This document shows, in pieces, positions 3-18,925 of a DNA stretch of 18,925 nt; position 1 is the first letter of the stretch; each line of letters starts with the position of its first letter. The notes beneath the pieces were generated by a model. That model searched no databases and was not told where the DNA came from. It saw only the letters and a program-made list of their open reading frames with translations. Made by a program: the position numbers and the translations under genes. Origin of the DNA: a virus. Taxonomy: Duplodnaviria > Heunggongvirae > Uroviricota > Caudoviricetes. Location of the stretch: IMG/VR virus record IMGVR_UViG_3300037419_001521. One strand, 5' to 3'.

Positions 3-569
3 GATGAGAGCGTCGCTGACGGCCGCGCCAAGCTGGACCAGGCTATCGCCGACTACCGCGCGCAGTGCCCCGGCGGCGACGTCACCGTGATCGGTCATTC
101 CGAAGGCGCTGAAGTTGCCGGTGACGAAGCCGCGCAGGCTGATCATGTCGTCACCTACGGCGACCCGCGCACGCCCGGCGGTATCTACTCGGCGCTCCCC
201 GGCATCTTCCCCGGCGCATCCAACAGTGGCCCGCGTGAGACCGCCCCGAACGAAAAGCGCGTCTGCCACCAGTACGACGGTATCTGCGACGTTCCTGCGC
301 CGTGGAGTGATCCGGCTGGCTTCGCGCAGGCTTTCCAGGGTTATGCGACCGGCTGGCACGGCTACGCGCCCGGTGAGGCTGACGGTGTGCCCGAGGGTTC
401 CACGGCTGTAGTACCGATGCCGGTGCCGAACGCGAGCATCCCTGATTCGACGCCTACCGGTATTCCGGCCCTTCCGCCGGTCAGCTTGCCGCAGTGGACT
501 CCGGGACCTCTGCCGAGCATTCAGGACCTCGACCCGATCATCAGCGGCATCCAGGGGCTCATCAAGTGA
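3..569 (+). CDS. Cutinase/PE-PPE-like alpha/beta serine hydrolase (5' truncated; possible LysB-like esterase) with Pro-rich C-terminal tail
   Basis: The frame is open from the window start: DESVADGRAKLDQAIADYRAQCPGGDVTVIGHSEGA. It has the GxSxG nucleophile (GHSEG) preceded by CP, then YGDP, CHQYDGICD (catalytic Asp region with a Cys pair) and WHGY (candidate catalytic His). Confidence 0.8.
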   Translation, partial: DESVADGRAKLDQAIADYRAQCPGGDVTVIGHSEGAEVAGDEAAQADHVVTYGDPRTPGGIYSALPGIFPGASNSGPRETAPNEKRVCHQYDGICDVPAPWSDPAGFAQAFQGYATGWHGYAPGEADGVPEGSTAVVPMPVPNASIPDSTPTGIPALPPVSLPQWTPGPLPSIQDLDPIISGIQGLIK

Positions 570-799
570 CCTACCACGACCCGCACAGCACTGCCGATAT
601 CAACCATCGTTTCGATTTCCATCCGGCCACGACCGAAGAAAAGCGCGGCGAGCACGGCAGCGTCCGTAACGCCTGCAAGGAACTCGCACATATGTTCGAT
701 CGTGATCTGCCGCCCGGCCGTGAGAAGTCGCTGGCGATCACCAAGCTCGAGGAAGCGATGTTCTGGGCCAACGCCGGTATCGCTCGATTCAGGGATTGA
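566..799 (+). CDS. 77-aa protein resembling the Acb2/Tad1 hairpin family (candidate nucleotide-signal sponge)
   Basis: GTG start overlaps the upstream TGA (GTGA). C-terminal PGREKSLAITKLEEAMFWANAGIAR resembles the RExxxAxTxxEEAxMW helix of Tad1-like proteins as I recall it. Confidence 0.6.
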   Translation: MTYHDPHSTADINHRFDFHPATTEEKRGEHGSVRNACKELAHMFDRDLPPGREKSLAITKLEEAMFWANAGIARFRD

Positions 800-1292: not shown

Positions 1293-1574
1293 ATGGCCGA
1301 CGAATTCCGGAAGAACCCCGGCGACGTTCTGGATTACACGTGGGATTGGTCGCAGTGGCTGACCGGCGGTGACACTATCGCTTCGTCGTCGATGGCTGTG
1401 ACGTCTACCGCGACGAATATCACGCTGGTTTCGAATACGTTCAGCGCGACATATACGACGGTGTGGGTGTCCGGCGGCACTATCCCGAATTATTACACGA
1501 TTACCAACACGATTACGACTGTTGGCGGCCGAACGCGAGCACGTTCAATTCGAATCATGGTCGCGAATCAGTAA
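1293..1574 (+). CDS. Putative fibre-attachment adaptor protein
   Basis: KNPGDVLDYTWDWSQWL...TVWVSGG...Y.ITNTITT.GGRT.RS matches, from memory, the KDPxxxLDYxxDWxxWL family annotated as phage fibre-tail adaptor. Confidence 0.65.
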   Translation: MADEFRKNPGDVLDYTWDWSQWLTGGDTIASSSMAVTSTATNITLVSNTFSATYTTVWVSGGTIPNYYTITNTITTVGGRTRARSIRIMVANQ

Positions 1575-1589
1575 AAGGAAGGTTCTTTT

Positions 1590-2180
1590 ATGGCTGGCGA
1601 CGGCGTCAAGTGGGATATGCATGCCCGCGTTATCAAGTACGAACCGGAGACGGTCGAGCGGCTGACGGCCCAGATGGGGCACGAACCGAGCGCGTTTCAC
1701 CTCCGGCACCTCGAGGAAATCGGCCTTCTCGAGCCTGACGATATTGTCGAGGTTCCCGGCAACCTGCTCGTGACGACCGGGCTGAACCGGATCACGAACC
1801 TGATCATCGGCGGCGGCGGTACTCCTCTCGCGCACGCGAATGCGATTGTCGGTGTCGGCACCAGCTCCACGGCCGCGACGGTTTCCGATGTAGCGCTGGG
1901 TAGCGATGGCACCGCGAATGCGTATTACCAGCAGGCCGATTCGGGTTACCCGACGCAGAGCAATGGCACCATTACCTGCAATGCGACTTTCCAGACCGGT
2001 AATGCGAATTTCGCGTGGAATGAATGGTGCTGGGCGGACGGCTCGGGAACAATCACTGCTGGCACGACTCTCGCTTCCGTGGCGACTTCGCCGGTTATGT
2101 TGAATCACCGCATTCAGAGCCTCGGCACGAAGGTTTCCGGCGCTGTCTGGACGCTCTCCGCGACACTGACCCTGAGCTAG
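1590..2180 (+). CDS. Putative virion protein, tail-collar-fibre N-terminal-domain-like
   Basis: NLLVTTG...GVGTSSTAA..D..L...ATF..G.ANFAWNEW pattern resembles the base domain of phage fibres; strong RBS (AAAAGGAAGG). Confidence 0.5.
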   Translation: MAGDGVKWDMHARVIKYEPETVERLTAQMGHEPSAFHLRHLEEIGLLEPDDIVEVPGNLLVTTGLNRITNLIIGGGGTPLAHANAIVGVGTSSTAATVSDVALGSDGTANAYYQQADSGYPTQSNGTITCNATFQTGNANFAWNEWCWADGSGTITAGTTLASVATSPVMLNHRIQSLGTKVSGAVWTLSATLTLS

Positions 2181-2211
2181 ATAACGATTTTATAACGGCG
2201 GGGGTGGTTCG

Positions 2212-2649
2212 ATGCCTCTAGCCATTCGTGGCGGCGCGTATGCCAGTGCGGGTGTCACCGGTGGTGGTGTGTCGGCGAAGCAGCTCTCGCTCAATACCAT
2301 CGATTCCACAAACTATCCGTATACAGCTGCGATTGTCAGTGGCGGCTTGGTGGTTCGCGGCGCTGGGCCGATTGTGGTTACCGCTCGCGCGACGATGAGT
2401 TCGGGCACGATCACCGCGCAGTTGCGCATCGGCGGCACCACGGTAGCCACTGGCAATACCGCACTTCAGTCGAATATCACCTATATCTACAACGCCCACG
2501 ACGGCGATCAATTGCAGCTATGGGAGACAGACAGCGGATCGGGTGTTTCTCCGACCTCCGGCGGTATATCGAATGTCTACATCCATTACGACGTGCTGAC
2601 CGATCTTAGTCCTATCAACGGCTCCGTCATGCGTGCCGCACTATTCTAA
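2212..2649 (+). CDS. Hypothetical beta-rich (Gly/Ser/Thr-rich) putative virion protein
   Basis: Fits between neighbours; beta-strand-like composition; short C-terminal peptide SVMRAALF. Confidence 0.55.
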   Translation: MPLAIRGGAYASAGVTGGGVSAKQLSLNTIDSTNYPYTAAIVSGGLVVRGAGPIVVTARATMSSGTITAQLRIGGTTVATGNTALQSNITYIYNAHDGDQLQLWETDSGSGVSPTSGGISNVYIHYDVLTDLSPINGSVMRAALF

Positions 2650-2667
2650 ATCCGAGAGGTTCCCTTT

Positions 2668-3174
2668 ATGGCTGCCCCATGCTTTATTGCGTGGAACGGC
2701 GCGACCAACGCACTGACTGCGCCACTGGCCGCTGTTTCCGTTTCGTCGAGCACTACGAAGACGCTATTGCAGATCGTGCCCGCGTCGAACCAGAAGATCC
2801 GCATCATCGAGTGGGGCTACAGTTTCACCGCCGCGCCGACCAACAACGTACAGATGGAATTGGTGGAAACAGGCTCGGTCGCTGCTACCGTGACCGCGCT
2901 GGGTTCTTCGAGTGTGGTCGCCTACAACGACGCTACCGGCGGCACGACCGGCGTTCAGTTGTCGTCCTCGGCGAGTGGTTACACCGCTACGGCTGAAGGC
3001 ACTATTACCTCGACGCGCCTGCTCGATTACCAGTACGAAAACGGATTGTATTTCAAGAAGCAATTCCCGCTGGGTCGCGAGCCGGAGATCGGTACGGGCA
3101 AGGTTCTGCGCATTCGTGCCACCACCGGTGCCAGCTCGGCCAGCATTTCGGCGTACGTGGTCTGGGAGGAATAA
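2668..3174 (+). CDS. Hypothetical beta-sandwich putative virion protein
   Basis: GAGAGG RBS; alternating hydrophobic strands (KIRIIEWGYSF, LRIRAT, AYVVWEE); no enzyme motif seen. Confidence 0.6.
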   Translation: MAAPCFIAWNGATNALTAPLAAVSVSSSTTKTLLQIVPASNQKIRIIEWGYSFTAAPTNNVQMELVETGSVAATVTALGSSSVVAYNDATGGTTGVQLSSSASGYTATAEGTITSTRLLDYQYENGLYFKKQFPLGREPEIGTGKVLRIRATTGASSASISAYVVWEE

Positions 3175-3199
3175 GCAGAGCCCGTCCGGGAGGTAATCA

Positions 3200-3859
3200 A
3201 TGGCCCGGATAGGTCGCTCCCGTCCCGTATCGAACTACAGACCGCTTCACGCCCTCCTAGCCGGTCCCCCGCCCGACGCTGATACCGGCGCAGGTGTCGA
3301 TTCCGCCAGTGTCGTCGCTGTCCTTACCGACGTTGATACCGGCGCGGGCGTAGATACCGGCCAGATCAACCAGTCGGGCACTGACACTGGGACGGGCGTA
3401 GATACCGCCACGGTCATCCAGGCAGGCTCTGATACGGCCTCCGGTGTAGCCGACGCTGGCTCGGTTGGCGTCACTGTGACGGATTCCGAGCAGCTGACCA
3501 CCGAAGATTCGGCGACCTCGCCGTCCGGTTCCGACACCGGTTCCTTCGCGGAATCAGCTGGACTGCTGTTCGTCATCGAAGGCTCGGACACCGCAACCGG
3601 CGCGGATTCTGCCAGCGTTTCGCAGCACATCACCGGCGCTGATACCGCCACGGGAACCGACACCGCGACCGTGTTGGTGCAATCCGCCGATACTGCCGTC
3701 GCGAAGGACAACGCACCCTTCCTGATCATCAACGGCCGGATCATCGGTCCGAGGGTGTGCCTGGTCGCGGCGGATGTTCGGAAATTCAAGGTCCCGGCCG
3801 AGGTTCGGATTTGCAAGCCCCGGCAGGTGAGCAGGGTGTATCAAGTGAGGCCGGAATGA
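3200..3859 (+). CDS. Repeat-containing putative fibre protein
   Basis: GGGAGG RBS; about nine 16-18-aa DTxxGxD repeats; C-terminal R-x-x-x-V-x-A periodic segment. Confidence 0.7.
   Translation: MARIGRSRPVSNYRPLHALLAGPPPDADTGAGVDSASVVAVLTDVDTGAGVDTGQINQSGTDTGTGVDTATVIQAGSDTASGVADAGSVGVTVTDSEQLTTEDSATSPSGSDTGSFAESAGLLFVIEGSDTATGADSASVSQHITGADTATGTDTATVLVQSADTAVAKDNAPFLIINGRIIGPRVCLVAADVRKFKVPAEVRICKPRQVSRVYQVRPE
3275..3709 (+). repeat. Tandem 48/54-nt coding repeats (16/18 aa, consensus xxDTxxGxDxAxV)
   Basis: Units DADTGAGVDSASVVAVLT, DVDTGAGVDTGQINQS, GTDTGTGVDTATVIQA, GSDTASGVADAGSVGVTV, TDSEQLTTEDSATSPS, GSDTGSFAESAGLLFVIE, GSDTATGADSASVSQHIT, GADTATGTDTATVLVQ, SADTAVAKD. Confidence 0.85.
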
Positions 3860-4251
3860 AAGACGACGCTGAATACGCCGAGCAGAAATCCCTCACCGAA
3901 GAGGTCGAATCCGGCGACACGCGCCGCAGTTTGATTGCTCTGCGAGATTACGTCGCGCACGAACTCGAAGGCAATCGGTGCCAGAAATGCGCGATGAGTC
4001 AGCTTCGCACAGGTGATACCGCCGCGTTGGTGTTGCGCCTCCAGAAGATTATCGAAGATATTGCCGCCCTGCCGCCCGATCAGGACGAAGAAGCCGAAGC
4101 GAACAAGGGGGTAGTCAATCTTGCCTCCATACGCAAGCGCAGAGATCCTGATCGGGGACCAGCACCCAAGGTTTCTGACGATTCCGGACTCGGCACGAAG
4201 GCTGCCAAACGAGTACAAGGCGGTAGACAGCCGCGCTTCCGAGGCGATTGA
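3856..4251 (+). CDS. Terminase small subunit (probable)
   Basis: ATG overlaps the upstream stop (ATGA); lies directly before TerL; helical GDTRRSLIALRDYVAHELE...DTAALVLRL pattern like actinophage small subunits. Confidence 0.7.
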   Translation: MKDDAEYAEQKSLTEEVESGDTRRSLIALRDYVAHELEGNRCQKCAMSQLRTGDTAALVLRLQKIIEDIAALPPDQDEEAEANKGVVNLASIRKRRDPDRGPAPKVSDDSGLGTKAAKRVQGGRQPRFRGD

Positions 4252-5701
4252 TCTCGCGCGTCACGCCGGTCTGGAATTGGACCCGTGGCAGTGCCTGGTT
4301 CTGGAACACATGCTCGCGATCCGCGACGAAGAATATTGGGACGAAATCAACGGCCGGTGGGAGAACCAATGGGCCGCTGCTGAATTCGGCTGCGTGGTAG
4401 CCCGCCAAAACGGGAAAGGAAGTATACTCGAAGCCCGCGAACTGGCTGGTCTGTTTCTCTTCGGCGAGAAGGAAATAATCCATTCCGCGCACCTTTTCGA
4501 CACTTCGCAGAAGCATTTCGAGCGCGTTCGCCGCCTGATCGAAGACACCCCCGACCTGCGGAGTGAAGTCCTTCAGATCAAAGCCGGGCACGGCCAGGAA
4601 GGCATCTACCTACGGTCAGGCCAGAAACTGATCTTCAAAGCGCGGTCCAATCATGCCGGTCGTGGTTTCTCGGCTCCGCTGGTTGTGTATGACGAGGCGA
4701 TGGCGAACTTGAATTCGTCGATCATTGAAGCGTCGATGCCGACGGTGTCCGCGCAGCCGAATCATCAGATTATTTACGCCGGGTCGGCCGGTACCGCTGA
4801 ATCCGAGCACTTCGGTCGCGCCCGCAATCGGGCCATGAAGGTCATCAACGGCGAGAGTCGCGAAATCCGGTTCGGATGGGCTGAATGGTCCGCTGAGCTG
4901 TGCAGTTCGTATTGCCCGCCTGATTGCGACGAGCACGACAATCCCGACGACCCGAAGACGTGGGCGAAAGCCAACCCCGCGCTCGGTATCCGTATCTCCG
5001 AGGAGTACATCCGCGAGACCGAAAAGAAGGCCATGTCTCCGGCCGGTTTCGCGAAAGAGCGCTTGTCTGTAGGTGATTGGCCCACCGAGGACGGCGGCTG
5101 GCGTGTCATCCCGAAAGATACCTGGGAGGGTCGCCGCGACGAACTTTCGCAGTTGAAGGGCAAGTTCTGCCTCGCGATCGACTGCGCCCCTGATGCCACC
5201 TTCACGTGCATCACCGCTGTCGGTGCGAATGACGACTCGCAGATCCACGGCGAAATCACCGGTAGTGACGCGCTGTTCGATTACAGGCCCGGCATCAAGT
5301 GGGCGGTCGAGCGGATCACCGACATCTGGAAGGCCAACCGGCCCGAATTCGTGGTCATCAACCCCGCGACACCAGCCGGACGCCTGATCCCCGAACTCGA
5401 ATCGCGCGGCATCAAGGTCGAGACCGTCACTTCGCGTGAATATGCGCAGGCGTGCGGCGATATCAAGGATGCGGTGGCCCCGAAGGCTCGTGAAGCCGCT
5501 GCATTCGTGCATATCGATCAGTCGCCATTGAATATCGCTGTCGCTAATGCCATCACCCGCCGCGTGCAGGAGTTGTGGGCGTGGGACAAAACCGAGGCGG
5601 CTGCCGATATTACGCCGTTGACGTGCATGACGCTCGCTTTCTACGGGTTCAAGAAATACATCTTCCGTAAGACTTCCGCGCCGTGGGTTTATCGCCGCTG
5701 A
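4121..5701 (+). CDS. terL: Terminase large subunit
   Basis: LDPWQ, Walker A VARQNGKG, Walker B LVVYDEA, ANPALG, C-terminal nuclease region (LAIDCAPD...DITP); TTG start after AAGGGGG. Confidence 0.95.
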   Translation: MPPYASAEILIGDQHPRFLTIPDSARRLPNEYKAVDSRASEAIDLARHAGLELDPWQCLVLEHMLAIRDEEYWDEINGRWENQWAAAEFGCVVARQNGKGSILEARELAGLFLFGEKEIIHSAHLFDTSQKHFERVRRLIEDTPDLRSEVLQIKAGHGQEGIYLRSGQKLIFKARSNHAGRGFSAPLVVYDEAMANLNSSIIEASMPTVSAQPNHQIIYAGSAGTAESEHFGRARNRAMKVINGESREIRFGWAEWSAELCSSYCPPDCDEHDNPDDPKTWAKANPALGIRISEEYIRETEKKAMSPAGFAKERLSVGDWPTEDGGWRVIPKDTWEGRRDELSQLKGKFCLAIDCAPDATFTCITAVGANDDSQIHGEITGSDALFDYRPGIKWAVERITDIWKANRPEFVVINPATPAGRLIPELESRGIKVETVTSREYAQACGDIKDAVAPKAREAAAFVHIDQSPLNIAVANAITRRVQELWAWDKTEAAADITPLTCMTLAFYGFKKYIFRKTSAPWVYRR

Positions 5702-5872: not shown

Positions 5873-7378
5873 TTGCCTAGTCTATGGTCACGCCTGACGC
5901 GTCGATCGAAGCGCGATATGGGGGCCGTCGCCGATCAGAACGCGCTCGCGGAGTATTTCACTTTCAACGGCGGCGCTTATCCGATCGGCAGTTACGGCGG
6001 CATCTATCCGTTCGTCACCTACGACAACAACGGGCCGCTGAAGCAGGAAACGATCCCGAACGATTTCGAAGGCTATGTCAACAACGCTTTCAAATCCAAC
6101 GGTGTCGTTTACGCGGTCTGCATGGTCCGTCAGCATATCTTTTCCGAAGCGAGGTTCGCTCTCCAGCAGTTCAACGGCGAGCGCCCCGGGGATTTGATCC
6201 GTCGCGGAAACACCCTCAAGATCCTTGAAACGCCTTGGCCGAACGGGACTACCGGCGAATTGCTGGCCCGCGCGATCCAGGACGTCGATTTGTGCGGCAA
6301 TCATTACGTCGTTCGCGAAGACGGCCCGCGTGGTCCGAGGTTGCGGCGGTTGCGCCCCGATTGGGTGACGATCGTCCTGACCAAAGATCCCAGCCAGGCG
6401 CTCAAGTCGGATATCCAGGGCTATATCTACAAGCCCGGCAATACCGAAGACAGCTCGAAGTGGGAGCTTTTCCCGATCGACGGCAGTAACGGCATTGTCG
6501 CGCATTGGTCGCCGACTCCGGACCCTTCTGCTCAGTATCGCGGCATGTCGTGGCTGACTCCGGTGATCAAAGAACTCATCGCCGATGAAGCGGTTTCGAC
6601 GTACAAAGTCAACTACTTCAACAATTCCGCAACCCCGAATCTAGCGGTCAGTTTCGACCCGTCTGTGACTCGCGAGCAATTCATTGAGTTCATGGAAGTG
6701 ATGAACGGGACGAAGCACGGTCTGGGTCATGCTGGTGAAACGTTGTACCTCGGTGGTGGCGCGCAAGTCGAACCTATCGGCGCGAAGATCCATGAAATCG
6801 ACTTCTCGAAGCTGACTTCTATTACCGAGCTTCGGATCTGCGCAGCTGCTCGTGTCCCTCCGACTGTTGTCGGTCTCACCGAAGGTATGCGCGGCTCGGC
6901 GCTGAATCAAGGAAATTTCGACGCCGCGAAGGAAATGCTCGCGAATGCGACGATGCGTCCGTTGTGGCGGAGTTTGTGTGCCGCGTATTCGGTGCTGGTC
7001 GATGTTCCGCCTCGGATGCGGCTCTGGTACGACGACCGCGATATTCAGTTCCTGCGCGACGACCGGCAGAAGCTAGCGGAATTGCAGCACACCGAAGCCA
7101 CCACGATCGCCCGGCTGGTTCAGGACGGTTTCACTCCGGAATCTTCCGTGGCTGCCGTTATTCAGCAGGATTGGCGCTTGCTCGAACACACCGGGCTCTA
7201 CAGCGTGCAGCTTCTGCCTCCGACTATTTCTCACACTCTCGGTGGGCTTCCGCAAGCTGACGATCCCCTCGCAAAAGCGCCCGCACCGAAAACCGATCCC
7301 GGCCAGACGCAACAGCCGGGCGGTTATTCCTCTCAGTCGCATCCACCTCCTCCCCCATCTGATGACGGCGGCGACTAA
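5873..7378 (+). CDS. Portal protein (HK97 family)
   Basis: Position after TerL; RRLRPDWV, YRGMSWLTP, NSATPNL, ICAAARVPP motifs; AAGGAG RBS before the TTG; Pro-rich C-terminal tail. Confidence 0.92.
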   Translation: MPSLWSRLTRRSKRDMGAVADQNALAEYFTFNGGAYPIGSYGGIYPFVTYDNNGPLKQETIPNDFEGYVNNAFKSNGVVYAVCMVRQHIFSEARFALQQFNGERPGDLIRRGNTLKILETPWPNGTTGELLARAIQDVDLCGNHYVVREDGPRGPRLRRLRPDWVTIVLTKDPSQALKSDIQGYIYKPGNTEDSSKWELFPIDGSNGIVAHWSPTPDPSAQYRGMSWLTPVIKELIADEAVSTYKVNYFNNSATPNLAVSFDPSVTREQFIEFMEVMNGTKHGLGHAGETLYLGGGAQVEPIGAKIHEIDFSKLTSITELRICAAARVPPTVVGLTEGMRGSALNQGNFDAAKEMLANATMRPLWRSLCAAYSVLVDVPPRMRLWYDDRDIQFLRDDRQKLAELQHTEATTIARLVQDGFTPESSVAAVIQQDWRLLEHTGLYSVQLLPPTISHTLGGLPQADDPLAKAPAPKTDPGQTQQPGGYSSQSHPPPPPSDDGGD

Positions 7379-7399: not shown

Positions 7400-10123
7400 A
7401 TGAAGAAACATCAAATGATTTGCACTCGCAGCGTCGACTTTCTACCGATTACGGCCGATGACAACACCCAGAGCGACGGCCGCACTCTCGAGGGTTACGC
7501 TGCGGTCTGGAATTCCCCGACTGAAATCAATTCCTGGGAAGGCCGCTTCGTCGAGCAGATCGCTCCAGGCGCTTTCCGGAAAACGTTGGCGGAACGCAAG
7601 CCCGTCATGCAGTACAACCACGGTCATGACGCGCGGGTGGGCACGGTTCCTATCGGTGTCTATACGCAGATCACCGAGGACGAAAGAGGTCTGCATGTAG
7701 TCGGCCGTCTTTTCGATAATGCGGTGGTCGAGCCGGTCCGTCAGGCGATTGAAGCTGGCGCTGTCTCGGGTATGAGTTTCGCTTTCGAAGTTGTCCGCGA
7801 CGAGTGGACCGACAATGCCGGAAAGCCGGTCAGCGAAGACGAACTCTATCGACTGCTGTACGAACCGCGCGACCGTGGCCCACTTCAGCGCACCATCCGC
7901 GAAGTCAGGCTCCGGGAAGCCGGTCCGGTCCTCAATCCGGCGTATGCCGACACCTCTGTGGGTGTGCGCAGTGCTGACGAGCTGTCCGATGCTGAGCGCG
8001 AAGCTATTGCCGCTGAATACCGCCGGACGATGGCCGAAGTCGACACCGCTGTCCGCGAGACCGAGCAGGCGCAGACCGACCTCACCGACGCGCACCGCGA
8101 AGCGGCCGAAACCATCGAGGAAATCCGCGAAGAGATCGATCCGCCGGTCGTAGAGGAAACCCGCGACGCGCCGATCACCGACCTCGACAAATACGACCTC
8201 GATGGCGACGACACCGGACCGGTCGAATACGAACAGTCTCACGTTGACGGCGTAATTAATCCCGAGGCCGACGACGAGGACCACCTTTTCGAAGACGGCA
8301 TGTGTGTCACTTGCGGCACCAATCATATGCGGTCCGATGACAAGCCGTACGGCGACGTTTCTTACGCCGACCCGAAGAACGGCAAATACCCGATCGATAC
8401 CAAGGCTCACGTTCGCGCGGCGTGGTCCTACATCAATATGCCGAAGAACCAGAAGAGCTACAGCTCCGACGAGCTTTCGGCAATCAAGTCGAGGATCAAG
8501 GCTGCGGCCAAGAAATTCGGCATCGAAATTAATGACTCAGAAGAGAAATCGGCGGAAGTCAGCGCCGTCCATCGCGACACCCTGACCGACCAGCCGGAAA
8601 TTCCCGAAAGCGACGCCGCCCTCGAGGGCACCTTGCAGACACGGGAGTCCCCCACCGAAAAGGAAATTCGAGCCGACGAGGCTCCCGTAATTGTTAGGAA
8701 GAGGATCTTGACTCTCACCGAACTGCGTCAGCGGCTGGCGGAAATCGACGCCCGTACTGACGAAATCAACACCGAATACCGCGACGCCGAGCTGTCGGCC
8801 GAGATCGAAACCGAGTTTGCCGAGCTGCGCGACGAGCGCCCGAAGATCGAGGCTCGTATCGAGAAGATTCTGGCGCGTATGGCCGAGCTGGAGGGCGCTG
8901 CTGCCGACACCGGCCGGACCGAGCGTACTTTCTCGAGCGCGCCGTCTGCTCCGCGTAAGCCGGAGAACATCTACGACCTGGGCGAGATTCGCGCTGCGGC
9001 CCACGGCGAGGAGGACTACCTGGGCCTGGTGCGTGACAACGCCAAGCGTGCGATCGAGCGCGGCCAGTACTCCCGGATGGCTTCTCGTGAGGATGCTCAG
9101 GGCCACGCCGAGATGCTGCTGGACACCATCGACGATGAGACCGGCACCCTCGCGCATCGGTTCCTGAAGACCGGTTCGCCGCTGTATGAGCGGGCCTGGT
9201 CGAAGGCGGTTGCTGCGGGTACGCCTCAGCTGCTGTCGGGTGAGGAGTACCGCGCTCTGAGCTTGGGAACTGACGGTAGCGGTGGGTATGCCGTGCCTTT
9301 CCAGCTGGACCCGTCGGTGATCCTGACCTCGGCTGGCGTGATCAACCCGCTGCGTGACATCTCTCGCGTCGAGCAGATCGTCGGCAAGGAGTGGATGGGT
9401 GTCGTGTCGGCGGGCGTGAGTGTGTCGCGTGCTGCTGAAGCGGCGGAGGCGTCGGATAACAGCTTCACGCTGACTCAGCCGACCGTCCGTACCAACAGGG
9501 TTCAGGGCTTCATTCCTTTCTCGTACGAGCTGGCCGAGAGCTGGGCTCAGGTGCGTAACGAGATCACCCGCGCTCTGGTTGATGCCAAGGGCCGGGAAGA
9601 GGCGAACAGCTTCATGAACGGGGATGGGACCGGGTTGAACGCCGGTGGTGTTATCGGCACTCTGTCGGGTGGTTCGCTGGTTGCTGCGACGTCGGGTCAG
9701 GCATTTACTGCCGCTGATGTGTACCACCTCGAGGAGAGCCTGGACCCGCGCTGGCGCACCCCGGATGCGAAGTTCATCGCGCATCGTGCAATTTACAATA
9801 AAATCCGCCAGTTCGATCAGTATGGCGGCGCTCAGTTGTGGCAGCGTATTGGCGCTGGAATGCCCGCTGAATTGCTGGGTTACTCGGCGCTGGAGTCTTC
9901 GGTGATGGATTCCACTCACGCTACCGGCGATTTGTTCCTGCTGTTCGGTAATTTCCAGCAGTTCCTTATCGTTGATCGAATCGGGATGAGCGTTGAGTTG
10001 ATCCCCCAGGTTTTTGGTGCTAACCAGCGGCCTACCGGTCAGCGAGGAATTTACGCCATCTGGATGAACAACTCGGCCGTTCTGGTTCCGGGTGCGTTCA
10101 AGGCCCTTCAGGGCACCGCCTAA
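7400..10123 (+). CDS. Fused prohead protease / acidic linker / YADP domain / major capsid protein (907 aa)
   Basis: About 7475-7972: HK97-type protease (TLEGYAAVWN, YNHG, GMSFAF, GPVLNPAY). 8336-8533: KPYGDVSYADP..KYPID domain. From 8708: coiled-coil scaffold then HK97-fold capsid (GSGGYAVPFQLD). No stop between the parts. Confidence 0.92.
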   Translation: MKKHQMICTRSVDFLPITADDNTQSDGRTLEGYAAVWNSPTEINSWEGRFVEQIAPGAFRKTLAERKPVMQYNHGHDARVGTVPIGVYTQITEDERGLHVVGRLFDNAVVEPVRQAIEAGAVSGMSFAFEVVRDEWTDNAGKPVSEDELYRLLYEPRDRGPLQRTIREVRLREAGPVLNPAYADTSVGVRSADELSDAEREAIAAEYRRTMAEVDTAVRETEQAQTDLTDAHREAAETIEEIREEIDPPVVEETRDAPITDLDKYDLDGDDTGPVEYEQSHVDGVINPEADDEDHLFEDGMCVTCGTNHMRSDDKPYGDVSYADPKNGKYPIDTKAHVRAAWSYINMPKNQKSYSSDELSAIKSRIKAAAKKFGIEINDSEEKSAEVSAVHRDTLTDQPEIPESDAALEGTLQTRESPTEKEIRADEAPVIVRKRILTLTELRQRLAEIDARTDEINTEYRDAELSAEIETEFAELRDERPKIEARIEKILARMAELEGAAADTGRTERTFSSAPSAPRKPENIYDLGEIRAAAHGEEDYLGLVRDNAKRAIERGQYSRMASREDAQGHAEMLLDTIDDETGTLAHRFLKTGSPLYERAWSKAVAAGTPQLLSGEEYRALSLGTDGSGGYAVPFQLDPSVILTSAGVINPLRDISRVEQIVGKEWMGVVSAGVSVSRAAEAAEASDNSFTLTQPTVRTNRVQGFIPFSYELAESWAQVRNEITRALVDAKGREEANSFMNGDGTGLNAGGVIGTLSGGSLVAATSGQAFTAADVYHLEESLDPRWRTPDAKFIAHRAIYNKIRQFDQYGGAQLWQRIGAGMPAELLGYSALESSVMDSTHATGDLFLLFGNFQQFLIVDRIGMSVELIPQVFGANQRPTGQRGIYAIWMNNSAVLVPGAFKALQGTA
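8708..10123 (+). other. Probable internal in-frame TTG start giving stand-alone major capsid precursor (471 aa)
   Basis: AGGAAGAGG at 8696-8704 precedes an in-frame TTG ACT CTC ACC GAA CTG CGT (MTLTELR...). Confidence 0.55.
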
Positions 10124-14479: not shown

Positions 14480-17400
14480 ATGGCAACGGTAAAGACTTCG
14501 CTCGATTTCTCCATCACAGCCAAGTACGCAGGTACCGCCGCGATGGAAGCGGCCCGGAAGGATTTCCAGAAGACACGCGACGAGCTGCGCGCGATGGCCA
14601 AAGAAGGCATCAACATCCGCGTCGGCCTCAACGGGCTTGCAGAAGACAGAGCTGAAATCGCCGCGCTGACCAACAAGGTCCACGACGTTCATCTCCGCGT
14701 TGTCGCCACCGGTCTCGCTGATGCCGAAGAGGCTATCAACCGGATCGCGCGGCCCCGTACGGTCAAGATCGTCGCTGTCGCTGATGTCGCGCAGGCCGAA
14801 GAGGACATCCGCAACGCCACCCGGACTCGTGTCGGGCTCATCGAATACCGGGGTGACGCAACCGAGGCCACCGAAGCTGTCAAGGAAGCAGCCCGTACGC
14901 AGACCGCGCATGTCGTAGCCGAGGCCGATGGTGTGGCCGCCGCGAAAGCGAAGCTCGACGAACTGTCCCGGCCCCGTGTCGCGACGGTCACGACCGCAAT
15001 TGCCATCGACAACGATTCGCAGAAGCAGCTCAATGCGCTGAAGGCCGCGTACGACAAGGCGGTCAATGAAATCCGCGCCGGGCGCGACGAGCAGATCCGG
15101 GAAATTCGCCACAAGCTCGCGAACGACAAGCTGGCGGTGCCCGACGCGTTCGGCAAAGCGAAATACACCGCCGCCGGGCAGCGCGCTATCGCTCAGAAGC
15201 GCCTCGATCTCAACGGCGAGGCTCAGCAGGTTATCGAGTCGATCAAAGCCGATGCGGCGCGGCAAATTGCGATGGCGAAAGATCTCGCGCGATCCGGCGG
15301 CCTCGATATCTCCACCGACAAGAAAACCGCGCAAGCGGATCTGAAAGCGCGCACCGCAGCGGAGCGTCAATACGACAAGCAACGCCAGGATGCGGCGAAA
15401 CAGGCTCAGCGAGAATTCGATAAAGCGCGCGATCTCAGTAACGCCGCGCAAGAGAGGGCCGCCAAGTCGCAGCTGCGCAATCAAGCCATCGGCATCAAAG
15501 ACGAGATCGGCGACCTGATGAAGGGGCACGTTCTCAAGCTCGATGTCGACAAGGCGCGGGCAAAAGCTGAAATCGATGCGGCCTTCCCGCGTAAGCGGAC
15601 GGTGGAAATCCAAGCCATTATTACGCGCGGGAAGCAGGATCTCGATTCCGCCGACCGTGAGCACAAAGCGCAGCTCGGCCAGATTCAAAGGTCCGCTGAT
15701 CGCGGAATCGGCCGTGCGCTGGACGCTCGAGATCAGACCGTCTCCGCTGGTGGCAACCGCGCCCTGGCCGACCGTGACGCGCGCAACGAAATTACGAGGA
15801 TTCGCGCCGAAGCAGACACCGCCGCCGCGCAGGCGCAACTCGATCACTTGAAGCGTCAACAGAATGTGGTCGTCAAGGCGCAAGCCGATATCGCGGAGGC
15901 GAAGGCAAAACTCGATTCACTGCGTAAGCCGATCGATGTCAAGGCCAATAAGGGTGCGATCGACGCCATCACGTCCGCTGCTGGCAAAGCGAAGACCTCG
16001 GTGACGGAGCTGGCTGCCGCGATGGCGTTGGTCAGCGTCGGTGCCGGTGCTCTGGGCGCTGTCGCGCTCACCGGTCTGGCTGGTGGTGTCATCGCTGCCG
16101 GTGGTGCCGCTATGGCGATCAACCAAAAGCTGACCGTGTCGCACCGCGAAGCGATGGACGCCGCGAAGATGCAGGCCGAGCAGGCTAAGCGCGACGTCAT
16201 CGAAGCCAACCGCGAAATCGCAACCACCGCAATCGAATCCGGCCAGAAGCAGGCCGCCGCTCAGCACGACGTGGCGATTGCCCAGCGCGATGTTGCCGAC
16301 ACGGCCATCGAATCGGGTCAGCGGATCGCGGCTGCGCAGCACGAAGTGGCCATGGCCGACCGAGGTGAAGAGGATGCCCGACGCTCCCTGACCGATGCCT
16401 ACCGCGATGCACGCCACGAACTCGAGGATCTGCAACTCCAGCTCGAAGCCGCGCCGGTCAATGAGCGTGGTGCGGAGCTGCGGTTGCGTCGCGCCCGGCA
16501 GAACATGATGGACCTGTACAAGTCGGGTCGCCCGGTCACGGTTCTGGATATCCAGGAGCACCAGCAGGCGATCGATGAAGCGCAGGTCGGTCTCGACGAG
16601 GTCCGCGAGCGTAACCGGCAGTTGCAGGACGATGCTGCTGTTGCCGCTCAGCGTGGCGTCGAAGGCAACGAAAAGGTTATCAAGGGTAAAGAGGGCCTGG
16701 CCGACGCGACTTATCAGGCGCAAATTTCTCAGCAGAATTTAGCGAATACGCAGCGCCAGACGTCGGAACAGATGGCCGATGCCGCTTATCGGGAACACAT
16801 CGCTCAGCAGAATCTTGCGAATACTCAGCGCGAAACTGCGGCAGCTCAGCAAAAGGCTGCGGAAAATCTTACCGTTGCTCTGGCTGAGCAAGCTCGCGCG
16901 AATTCCGAATTGGCGAAAGCAGCCCATCAGGCCAATACCGCTATGACGCAGTTGTCGGCGATGTTCGCTGATCTGGCTGCGCCATTGAAGGGTCCGTTGC
17001 ATGACGCGATGGAGTCTTTCAAAAAGCAGTTCATGGACCTGAAGCCGGTTATTCAGATCGGTTTCCAGTCCGCTGCTGATGACGTGCAGCCTTTCACTGA
17101 TGCGTTGACCGGTTTGATGCTCGGACCTGTTCCGGGTGTTACCAGCGCGCTTGCGAAGTCGCAACCTACAGTTCTCGGTTTCCGCGACGGTATGCGCACA
17201 CTGGGTCTCGATATCGGCACGATGTTCGATAAAATGTCGAACGGTGCCGAGGGTTTCGGCGATATGTGGCGCATTCTGGGAACCCAGCTCGGCACTTTCC
17301 TCATCCAGATCGGCGATTTCGCGGGTCGTTATGCAGGTCCGGCGTCGCAAGCGCTGGGTTCTTTGCTCGACGGCGTGAATAAACTGGCGGCGGGATTCCT

Positions 17401-18925
17401 GAACGGGCTCGGCCCCGTGATGCAGAATCTGCCGGATATCGCTGGCCGTATCAATATCGCGATGGGCGACGTCGGCAATATCTTGCAGCAGGTCGTACCC
17501 GCTCTCGGTCGCTTGGTGACAGCACTGGTAGACGGTTTGGGTCAGGCGTTCCATACGCTTTCTGGACCGTTGGCGACCACGCTGGTAAATATTCTCGACA
17601 GCCTCACCGGAATTGTTGTCGGATTGTCCGGACCGGTGAACGACCTGGCGAAGGCTTTCGGCGCGGTTTTGGATTTCCTCGGCCCGTTGGTGCCGTTGAT
17701 TACTCCGCTGGTCGTCGGTTTCGCCGCGTTCCAGTACATCGGTAAGCCGGTATACGGAGCGCTCCAGTCGATCAAGGAACAGGGTACCGGCGTTCTCGGG
17801 ATCTTCGGTAATCCGTGGGTCACAGGGTTTGCGGTCGCCACTGGCGCTGTTCTGGCGTTCACCGAATCTGCGGGCAAGGGTGCGGCTGCCGTTCAGCGGC
17901 TCAAAGACAACACTCAGGCCCTGCTCGACGCTCGATACGAAGCCGACAAGGCCCTCGAGCAGTCCGGCGGCGCGCTCAACGACAGCGTGATCAACGGCCA
18001 GGCGCAGATTCTGGACCAGTACCGCCAGCAGATGAAGACCAGCGCCAACGATACGCCTGGTTTCCTCGACAAGGGTGTTGCCGGTCTCGGCGCGATCGGG
18101 CAGAAGTTGTTCGGTGCCGGTGGTGGTATTGCGAACGACGAAGGTATTCGCGAAGAGGCCAATACGCACGCCAAGGCCGTCCGGGACGCATTCAGTGATC
18201 TGGGGTTGAACAGCGAGCAGATCGTCAAGATCTACACGGGTTCGAAAAAAGATTACGACGCCATGATCGACCGCCTCAAGGGCATGGGCGACGGCGGAAA
18301 AGAAGCGGCTACCGAACTAGGCCGTCTGCGCGGCGAATGGGCTCTGGATTCAGTTTCCGTTTCTCCGGTTACGGCGGCGATGAAAGATCTCGCCGATAAG
18401 AACAAAGACGCTCAGTCTGCGATCAGCGCCGCGACGGATGCCTTGGAAAAGCAGCGGCAAGGCGGCCTCACTCTCGAGAATGCGCAGCTGAAGCTCAACG
18501 AAGCCATTTCGGGTCTCAGCACGAACGCGCAGTCGGCTTCGGGTGCGATGGTCGACGCCAATGGCGTTATCGATACCACGAGCCAGAAGGGTCAGGCGCT
18601 CTACAACCTGCTCAACCAGCAGTTGGCACCGGCTTGGGAAACGTTGACCACTGCCGTTTATCGGGATGCGATTCAGCACGGCCAGACGGCCGATCAGGCG
18701 CAAGCCGCCGCGCAGCGGGCATCGGATGGTGTTCGCGATTCGGCGATGCGGCAGATCCAGGCGATGGGCTACACGCAAGAGCAGGCCCAGCATTTGCTTG
18801 ATCACTACAACCAACTGTCGGGCAATTTCAAGGCCGTCATGACGTTGAATGCTGATCAGGCCAGTGGCGAGCTGGATAAATTGCAGACCAAGCTCGATCT
18901 GATCATGAAAAAGCTGGATGGCGAC
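14480..18925 (+). CDS. Tape measure protein (3' truncated, at least 1482 aa)
   Basis: ATG at 14480 (MATVKTSLDFSITAK...); absent from the ORF track because it has no stop in the window; I read no stop in this frame to the window end. Ala/Gln-rich helical sequence with hydrophobic Gly/Ala segments; long antisense shadow ORFs lie over it. Confidence 0.93.
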   Translation, partial: MATVKTSLDFSITAKYAGTAAMEAARKDFQKTRDELRAMAKEGINIRVGLNGLAEDRAEIAALTNKVHDVHLRVVATGLADAEEAINRIARPRTVKIVAVADVAQAEEDIRNATRTRVGLIEYRGDATEATEAVKEAARTQTAHVVAEADGVAAAKAKLDELSRPRVATVTTAIAIDNDSQKQLNALKAAYDKAVNEIRAGRDEQIREIRHKLANDKLAVPDAFGKAKYTAAGQRAIAQKRLDLNGEAQQVIESIKADAARQIAMAKDLARSGGLDISTDKKTAQADLKARTAAERQYDKQRQDAAKQAQREFDKARDLSNAAQERAAKSQLRNQAIGIKDEIGDLMKGHVLKLDVDKARAKAEIDAAFPRKRTVEIQAIITRGKQDLDSADREHKAQLGQIQRSADRGIGRALDARDQTVSAGGNRALADRDARNEITRIRAEADTAAAQAQLDHLKRQQNVVVKAQADIAEAKAKLDSLRKPIDVKANKGAIDAITSAAGKAKTSVTELAAAMALVSVGAGALGAVALTGLAGGVIAAGGAAMAINQKLTVSHREAMDAAKMQAEQAKRDVIEANREIATTAIESGQKQAAAQHDVAIAQRDVADTAIESGQRIAAAQHEVAMADRGEEDARRSLTDAYRDARHELEDLQLQLEAAPVNERGAELRLRRARQNMMDLYKSGRPVTVLDIQEHQQAIDEAQVGLDEVRERNRQLQDDAAVAAQRGVEGNEKVIKGKEGLADATYQAQISQQNLANTQRQTSEQMADAAYREHIAQQNLANTQRETAAAQQKAAENLTVALAEQARANSELAKAAHQANTAMTQLSAMFADLAAPLKGPLHDAMESFKKQFMDLKPVIQIGFQSAADDVQPFTDALTGLMLGPVPGVTSALAKSQPTVLGFRDGMRTLGLDIGTMFDKMSNGAEGFGDMWRILGTQLGTFLIQIGDFAGRYAGPASQALGSLLDGVNKLAAGFLNGLGPVMQNLPDIAGRINIAMGDVGNILQQVVPALGRLVTALVDGLGQAFHTLSGPLATTLVNILDSLTGIVVGLSGPVNDLAKAFGAVLDFLGPLVPLITPLVVGFAAFQYIGKPVYGALQSIKEQGTGVLGIFGNPWVTGFAVATGAVLAFTESAGKGAAAVQRLKDNTQALLDARYEADKALEQSGGALNDSVINGQAQILDQYRQQMKTSANDTPGFLDKGVAGLGAIGQKLFGAGGGIANDEGIREEANTHAKAVRDAFSDLGLNSEQIVKIYTGSKKDYDAMIDRLKGMGDGGKEAATELGRLRGEWALDSVSVSPVTAAMKDLADKNKDAQSAISAATDALEKQRQGGLTLENAQLKLNEAISGLSTNAQSASGAMVDANGVIDTTSQKGQALYNLLNQQLAPAWETLTTAVYRDAIQHGQTADQAQAAAQRASDGVRDSAMRQIQAMGYTQEQAQHLLDHYNQLSGNFKAVMTLNADQASGELDKLQTKLDLIMKKLDGD
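16226..16846 (+). repeat. Two separate 75-nt (25-aa) tandem duplications in the tape measure gene
   Basis: TAIESGQKQAAAQHDVAIAQRDVAD/TAIESGQRIAAAQHEVAMADRGEED at 16226-16375; LADATYQAQISQQNLANTQRQTSEQ/MADAAYREHIAQQNLANTQRETAAA at 16697-16846. Confidence 0.85.

Follow-up and report, generated by a model that had tools for sequence, protein, structure and literature searches.

The window, that is, the whole 18,925-nucleotide stretch of tailed-phage DNA that was analysed, carries at its 5′ end a small gene at 566–799, placed between an esterase gene and the packaging and head genes. The genes and features, all on the + strand, are as follows.

3–569, +, esterase gene with PE-PPE and cutinase alpha/beta-hydrolase matches, cut at the window start
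553–557, +, AGGGG, Shine-Dalgarno-like run 8 nt before the GTG, from reading of the sequence; putative function
566–569, +, GTGA, overlap of the start codon of the small gene with the stop codon of the esterase gene, from sequence and ORF coordinates
566–799, +, coding sequence of the putative sponge (ORF list; Pfam PF24729, E 2.9e-23; >1,050 homologues with the start kept)
608–622, +, codons of R15-F16-D17-F18-H19, putative part of a dinucleotide pocket (conservation and dimer model)
617–787, +, stretch matching the hairpin profile, residues 18–74, with helices α1 (24–47) and α2 (52–74) (Pfam alignment and AlphaFold2)
653–667, +, codons of H30 to R34 in helix α1, proposed phosphate and ribose contacts (invariance, HMMER and dimer model)
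719–742, +, codons of R52 to T59 (REKSLAIT), predicted equivalent of an Arg/Thr pair (HMMER alignment to CbTad1 and spacing in PaMx33)
796–996, +, 66-aa ORF, with a TTG start overlapping the stop codon of the small gene and an alternative ATG at 805
1011–1289, +, HNH endonuclease
1293–3859, +, Gp77-like adaptor and other small genes
3757–4251, +, small terminase
4121–5701, +, large terminase
5873–7378, +, portal
7400–10123, +, protease–capsid fusion

The ORF at 566–799 is genuine and encodes 77 aa from a GTG start, the TGA stop being included in the coordinates. Its translation reads VTYHDP...GREKSLAITKLEEAMFWANAGIARFRD followed by the stop, and the protein ends in ...IARFRD, where the sequence-only reading had given ...IAR as the C-terminus. 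The GTG at 566 is supported as the start, since close homologues begin with MTYHDP or MSYHDP at the same aligned position. This codon overlaps the TGA stop of the esterase gene (567–569), and the AGGGG run on its 5′ side is a putative ribosome-binding site; with this overlap and this spacing, the translational coupling to the esterase gene that had been proposed earlier for the 77-aa ORF is plausible. A promoter and terminator scan of positions 1–1700 returned nothing above shuffled expectation.

The product of the upstream gene was assigned as a lysin-B-type esterase on the basis of its PE-PPE and cutinase family matches. The gene has a GC content of 68%, its neighbours having about 58%, and its only phage relatives, at about 32% identity in tblastn, were found in large Rhodococcus erythropolis phages; it lies far from the lysis cassette. 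The 66-aa ORF at 796–996 gave no PHROG match and only a sub-threshold match to DUF883. It was considered as a conserved partner of the small gene and rejected, as two other phage lineages have an unrelated gene in its place. Within the block of small, structural-looking genes 5′ of the terminase, positions 3200–3859 (+) encode a 219-aa protein with repeated D-T-G/A-x-G-V/A-D units and no family match; Rhodococcus phage Madraxi likewise carries minor tail genes 5′ of its terminase. The large terminase has its closest relatives in Rhodococcus equi phages, at just 46% identity. The 907-aa ORF at 7400–10123 (+) combines a prohead serine protease (Peptidase_S78), DUF6582 and an HK97-type major capsid domain, and an open frame of >1,482 aa (14480–18925, +), which runs past the window end and gave no Pfam match, is by its position probably a tape measure or large tail protein.

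The 77-aa protein was matched by Pfam PF24729 (Acb2/Tad1, hairpin domain) at 82.3 bits, the curated gathering cut-off being 27 bits, with profile positions 2–58 of 58 aligned to residues 18–74; no other Pfam family matched at E up to 1. PHROG 1454 (function unknown) was matched at E 1e-34, so that the family signal is far above chance, whereas NCBIfam and PADLOC gave no match. In a word-indexed protein search, 1,050 relatives were collected with an E threshold of 0.001; those listed are nearly all 70–100 aa long, every one carries a precomputed PF24729 assignment, and their source phages and prophages belong to Mycobacteroides, Mycolicibacterium, Nocardia, Rhodococcus and Gordonia. Overall, the relatives of 70–80 aa number >1,000, in phages and prophages of Mycobacterium, Gordonia, Nocardia, Rhodococcus and Streptomyces. 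An exhaustive search of 50%-identity representatives at the same threshold returned 2,961 clusters. In the phage collection, copies occur in 321 records (Mycobacterium 193, Paenibacillus 59, Gordonia 40, Streptomyces 10), the best relative being gp62 of the M. abscessus prophage prophi91-3 (84% identity); Mycobacterium phage Xandras gp101 has 45% identity. The nearest virus record, an 11-kb fragment, lacks a copy, a result that carries no information.

NCBI or UniRef already lists several relatives as "Acb2/Tad1 domain-containing protein" or as "DUF7681 family protein", and PF24729 phams have been noted in cluster A mycobacteriophages (2026 preprint); the family membership of close relatives is thus public knowledge. 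By its sequence, the protein is clearly an ordinary, intact, short Acb2-type member of a very large catalogued family. A match to the Acb2/Tad1 hairpin profile, which the sequence-only reading had named as the test of its candidate sponge, was therefore obtained. Its comparison of the second helix with the Tad1 pattern RExxxAxTxxEEAxMW was likewise borne out, as HMMER aligns this helix with sREnacalThvEEAlmW of CbTad1.

The placement of the gene was compared between phages. Against catalogued phages, the first 5 kb of this otherwise novel phage gave a nucleotide match only in the small gene itself, with 77–92% identity to Gordonia phages, and the homologue of Gordonia phage Remus is surrounded by genes of nucleotide metabolism and replication. 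Two other uncultured lineages carry the homologue, as in the window, just 5′ of a small gene that is followed by an HNH gene and terminase genes; the Acb2-like genes in other lineages occupy positions 4001–4237 (L002–L005) and 4001–4234 (L006). Such scattered placement is in keeping with a mobile accessory gene. An Acb2-like gene followed by a small gene, an HNH endonuclease gene and the terminase is met in three otherwise dissimilar phage lineages, which suggests that a spot by the packaging module is preferred for insertion of the Acb2-like gene.

The monomer was modelled with AlphaFold2 from 40 homologues (mean pLDDT 89, pTM 0.78). The model consists of two long antiparallel helices (24–47 and 52–74), preceded by a short N-terminal helix (6–15) and a loop that bears F16-D17-F18-H19-P20. 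The earlier description as a two-helix protein of 77 aa was thus correct in length and one helix short. Two long antiparallel helices are the build described for Acb2 proteins (Huiting 2023; Cao 2024; Hadary et al. 2025). A Foldseek search of the monomer against the PDB gave no match at E 0.001 or better, T4 Vs.4 standing third at E 1.8, and VIA-align returned generic helical bundles at Z 5–7. T4 Vs.4 was the only fold match with notable identity (30% over 56 residues, rmsd 3.2), at a Z of 5.8 that is no better than those of unrelated helical proteins; monomer fold searches cannot, on this model, separate the hairpin from other helical proteins. The profile of the 40 homologues was compared with the sequences of solved structures, where it reached Acb2_43 (9PTQ) at E 6.9e-9 and Tad1 (7UAV, 8KBx) at E 4.7e-4; hhalign to Acb2_43 gave 97.3% probability. 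PaMx33 Acb2 and T4 Vs.4 were not detected by sequence in this search at E up to 1. Together with the PF24729 match, the hits to Acb2_43 and Tad1 support the candidate Acb2/Tad1-like sponge of the sequence-only reading.

Oligomer modelling had been proposed earlier as a check on the sponge idea and was carried out for the homodimer, using two copies of the protein with one 3′3′-cGAMP riding along, the ligand being unscored. The dimer reached an ipSAE of 0.55 (runs 0.58, 0.55 and 0.53), compared with 0.00 for the best of three controls, a score that may partly reflect memory of the solved Acb2 and Tad1 complexes. In a calibration on solved structures, 20 of the 30 proteins solved as homo-pairs attained this mark, as did 1 of the 23 solved as single chains. 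The partner pLDDT was 91, and the contacts agreed to 100% between runs. A homodimer is thus supported by the model, with an interface that is two-fold around F66/E63 and in which segment 8–18 packs on α1 and α2 of the partner. F16–F18 are placed beside H30, G31 and R34 of the partner chain; this is the arrangement to be expected if the N-terminal motif and the basic residues of α1 were to form a composite pocket like that around Y11/K26 of PaMx33.

Conservation was assessed in two alignments, one of the 40 close homologues (A1) and one of 67 divergent representatives of clusters at 50% identity or less (A2). R15, F16 and H19 are invariant in A1, and H30 and R34 are the only two invariant residues in A2, where F16, H19, A41, P49, R52, T59, E62, W67, N69, A70 and A73 are kept in at least 90% of the representatives; R52 and T59 reach 90% or more in both alignments. 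In the HMMER alignment, checked with four residues that the Tad1 structure paper names (chain-index offset 1), R52 and T59 correspond residue for residue to R90 and T97 of CbTad1, which coordinate the cA3 phosphates and help form the hexamer (Tad1 structure paper). The cA3 site of PaMx33 Acb2 (R67/T74) likewise has Arg and Thr seven residues apart, the spacing that is found between R52 and T59. These two residues are predicted to be equivalent to the Arg/Thr pair with which Acb2 and Tad1 bind cyclic trinucleotides.

F16, F18 and H19 together with H30 and R34 are candidates for a second pocket; these conserved residues come together between the two chains of the dimer model. In PaMx33 Acb2, the cyclic-dinucleotide pocket is built from Y11 and K26, contributed by two protomers. 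As the window protein does not align to PaMx33 Acb2, the equivalents of Y11 (F18 or H19) and of K26 (R34) are guesses. The motif R15–H19 would form part of the dinucleotide pocket, and H30 and R34 are proposed as candidate phosphate and ribose contacts. The suggestion that the N-terminal RFDFHP motif contributes to the pocket, made earlier from the sequence, agrees with the conservation of F16 and H19 in A2 and with the modelled contacts of F16–F18 to R34 of the other protomer. The invariant and near-invariant residues (F16, H19, H30 and R34 on the one hand, R52 and T59 on the other) provide a mutational map of the two proposed pockets in the actinophage clade.

The protein is probably a short, homo-oligomeric anti-defence sponge of the Acb2 family, most likely directed against CBASS signals. 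It would assemble into the hexamer of the family (a trimer of dimers) and sequester nucleotide signals of host immunity uncleaved, so that the defence effector would never be switched on. Cyclic dinucleotides (3′3′-cGAMP, cUA) would be held in pockets at the dimer interface, between F16/F18/H19 of one chain and H30/R34 of its partner, whereas R52 and T59 would line two three-fold pockets for cyclic trinucleotides (e.g. cA3).

The preference for CBASS draws on published tests, in which 46 Acb2 homologues were challenged with seven systems (Hadary et al. 2025, bioRxiv 10.1101/2025.08.24.671296, Table S2). Of the 84 Acb2, Tad1 and Tad2 proteins tested, 65 acted on one system or more, and a CBASS was inhibited by the majority of the Acb2 proteins. 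Among the homologues tested there, three share the N-terminal motif of the window protein.

Acb2_35, motif RFSFHPA, 52% identity, blocked the 3′3′-cGAMP CBASS of E. albertii in plaque assays
Acb2_44, motif RFTYHSP, 42% identity, blocked both a cUA and a cGAMP CBASS
Acb2_4, motif FTYHQP, blocked a cGAMP CBASS

The different ligand considered in the sequence-only reading is not indicated, since the CBASS systems that these three relatives inhibit are ordinary ones with cGAMP or cUA as signal. No inhibition of Thoeris or Pycsar is recorded for any of them; in the case of Acb2_35 and Acb2_44, however, transformation with type I Thoeris failed (Hadary et al. 2025).

On the host side, 17 of 201 genomes sampled from the order to which the lysogen Mycolicibacterium sphagni belongs (presumably Mycobacteriales) contain CD-NTase (SMODS) genes, as do 2 of the 14 lysogens with a homologue. 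CBASS-type signalling therefore exists among the kinds of bacteria that carry the gene and is not common there. Against the anti-CBASS reading, a protein needed early in infection would hardly be expected to be encoded between a lysin-B-like gene and the packaging genes. Furthermore, the tested relatives are no closer than 52% identity, and the sponge activity of the window protein itself is a prediction. As ligand specificity within the Acb2 family switches repeatedly and the tree is poorly resolved, binding of CBASS signals is put no higher than reasonably probable, and 3′cADPR is given a minor share.

Sequestration of 3′cADPR (gcADPR), instead of or besides CBASS signals, would make the protein an anti-Thoeris sponge like Acb2_43 or Tad1, which is considered unlikely. 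It is favoured by the best solved match, Acb2_43 (PDB 9PTQ), a hexameric 3′cADPR sponge that inhibits type I Thoeris and not CBASS (Hadary et al. 2025), and by the family profile, which matches Tad1 too. R34 aligns in HMMER with K19 of Acb2_43, a contact of the 3′cADPR diphosphate, and F16-D17-F18-H19 resembles by eye the strand F2-D3-T4-H5, in which H5 anchors the ligand; the hhalign match to Acb2_43 did not extend into the N-terminal motif, so this FDFH/FDTH equivalence stays a by-eye one. Moreover, type I Thoeris was inhibited by 10 of the 46 Acb2 homologues (Hadary et al. 2025). Conversely, the contacts T4, L6, V7 and K55 of Acb2_43 are replaced by F18, P20, A21 and A70 (the first three paired by eye only), the gcADPR residues, β-sheet and C-terminal lid of Tad1 are missing, and the relatives with an aromatic-His-x-Pro motif are recorded against CBASS and not against Thoeris. 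A search for the ThsA SLOG domain (PF18185) found none in the 201 genomes, and as control genomes also gave no match, this result is silent on Thoeris.

It is judged rather improbable that the protein binds a signal outside the tested panels, such as the signal of a Pycsar or type II/IV Thoeris system, a second messenger peculiar to mycolic-acid bacteria, or the cyclic oligoadenylates made by type III CRISPR. The actinophage clade, with its R-F-x-F-H...H30...R34 pattern and extra N-terminal helix, would then be tuned to a signal that none of those panels contained. Type III CRISPR occurs in mycobacteria, and the R52/T59 site also fits cA3 from such systems. The clade has an invariant set of its own (R15, F16, H19, H30, R34) and an N-terminal helix that is absent in Acb2_43, and a CD-NTase is present in just about 8% of the sampled genomes of the order mentioned, yet 321 phage records hold the gene. 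A 2025 micropublication calls the role of the protein in mycobacteriophage infection unknown. Against this, there is no positive evidence for any other ligand, and the motif-sharing relatives act on ordinary CBASS in E. coli. If the clade were tuned in this way, the protein could be used as bait for the discovery of the signal.

That the protein is no sponge at all but a hairpin with another role, e.g. a structural or regulatory small protein sharing a common scaffold, would fit the abundance of helical hairpins, the generic helical matches of the monomer fold searches and the position among late genes, but is very improbable in view of a sequence match to a specific family (of the order of E 1e-23) with the ligand-site residues R52/T59 kept, the activity of most tested family members (Hadary et al. 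2025) and the scattered positions in unrelated phages, which fit an accessory counter-defence gene.

As one further member of a very large anti-defence family, the predicted anti-CBASS sponge carries little weight alone. Laboratory-tractable relatives are available in Gordonia phage Remus (gp51), Mycobacterium phage First and prophage prophi91-3 (gp62), and with these it could be tested whether cyclic-nucleotide immunity matters in mycolic-acid bacteria.

Among the known systems, Tad1 (CbTad1; PDB 7UAV, 8KBE–8KBH) is homologous in its C-terminal hairpin, over residues 6–70 in the profile match given above. The N-terminal antiparallel β-sheet and the C-terminal lid of Tad1 are absent from the window protein: just 17 residues stand ahead of the hairpin match, predicted as helix and loop, and the chain stops 3 residues past the last helix. 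The residues of the gcADPR/dinucleotide pocket of CbTad1 (F82, N92, R109 and R113) correspond to F44, K54, G71 and approximately F75 and are not kept, F44 being variable across the family. A truncated Tad1 was rejected because of the missing β-sheet, lid and gcADPR-pocket residues. Of the minimal sponge lacking the N-terminal part of Tad1 that had been envisaged earlier, the lack of that part stands, whereas the protein is a normal short Acb2-type member and not a Tad1 that lost its N-terminus.

Acb2_43, the nearest solved relative, has a similar length (75 aa) and shares the helix PxGREKSxxxTKLEEAMF; unlike the window protein, it has N- and C-terminal β-strands and lacks the N-terminal helix. 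With the founding anti-CBASS sponges, PaMx33 Acb2 (PDB 8H2J) and T4 Vs.4 (PDB 7UQ2), the window protein shares the proposed mechanism and the overall build. Acb2_35, Acb2_44 and Acb2_4 come from outside the lineage of the window phage. Acb2_35 differs in having H for E53 and H-R for F66-W67, positions that are invariant in the clade of the window protein. The identities of Acb2_35 and Acb2_44 to the window protein span nearly the full length. All three, like the window protein, have 67–79 aa, an N-terminal R-F-x-(F/Y)-H-x-P motif and an Arg on α1, and they share with it the helix GRE(K/Q)(S/A)LAxTKLEEA(M/V)FWANAAIAR.
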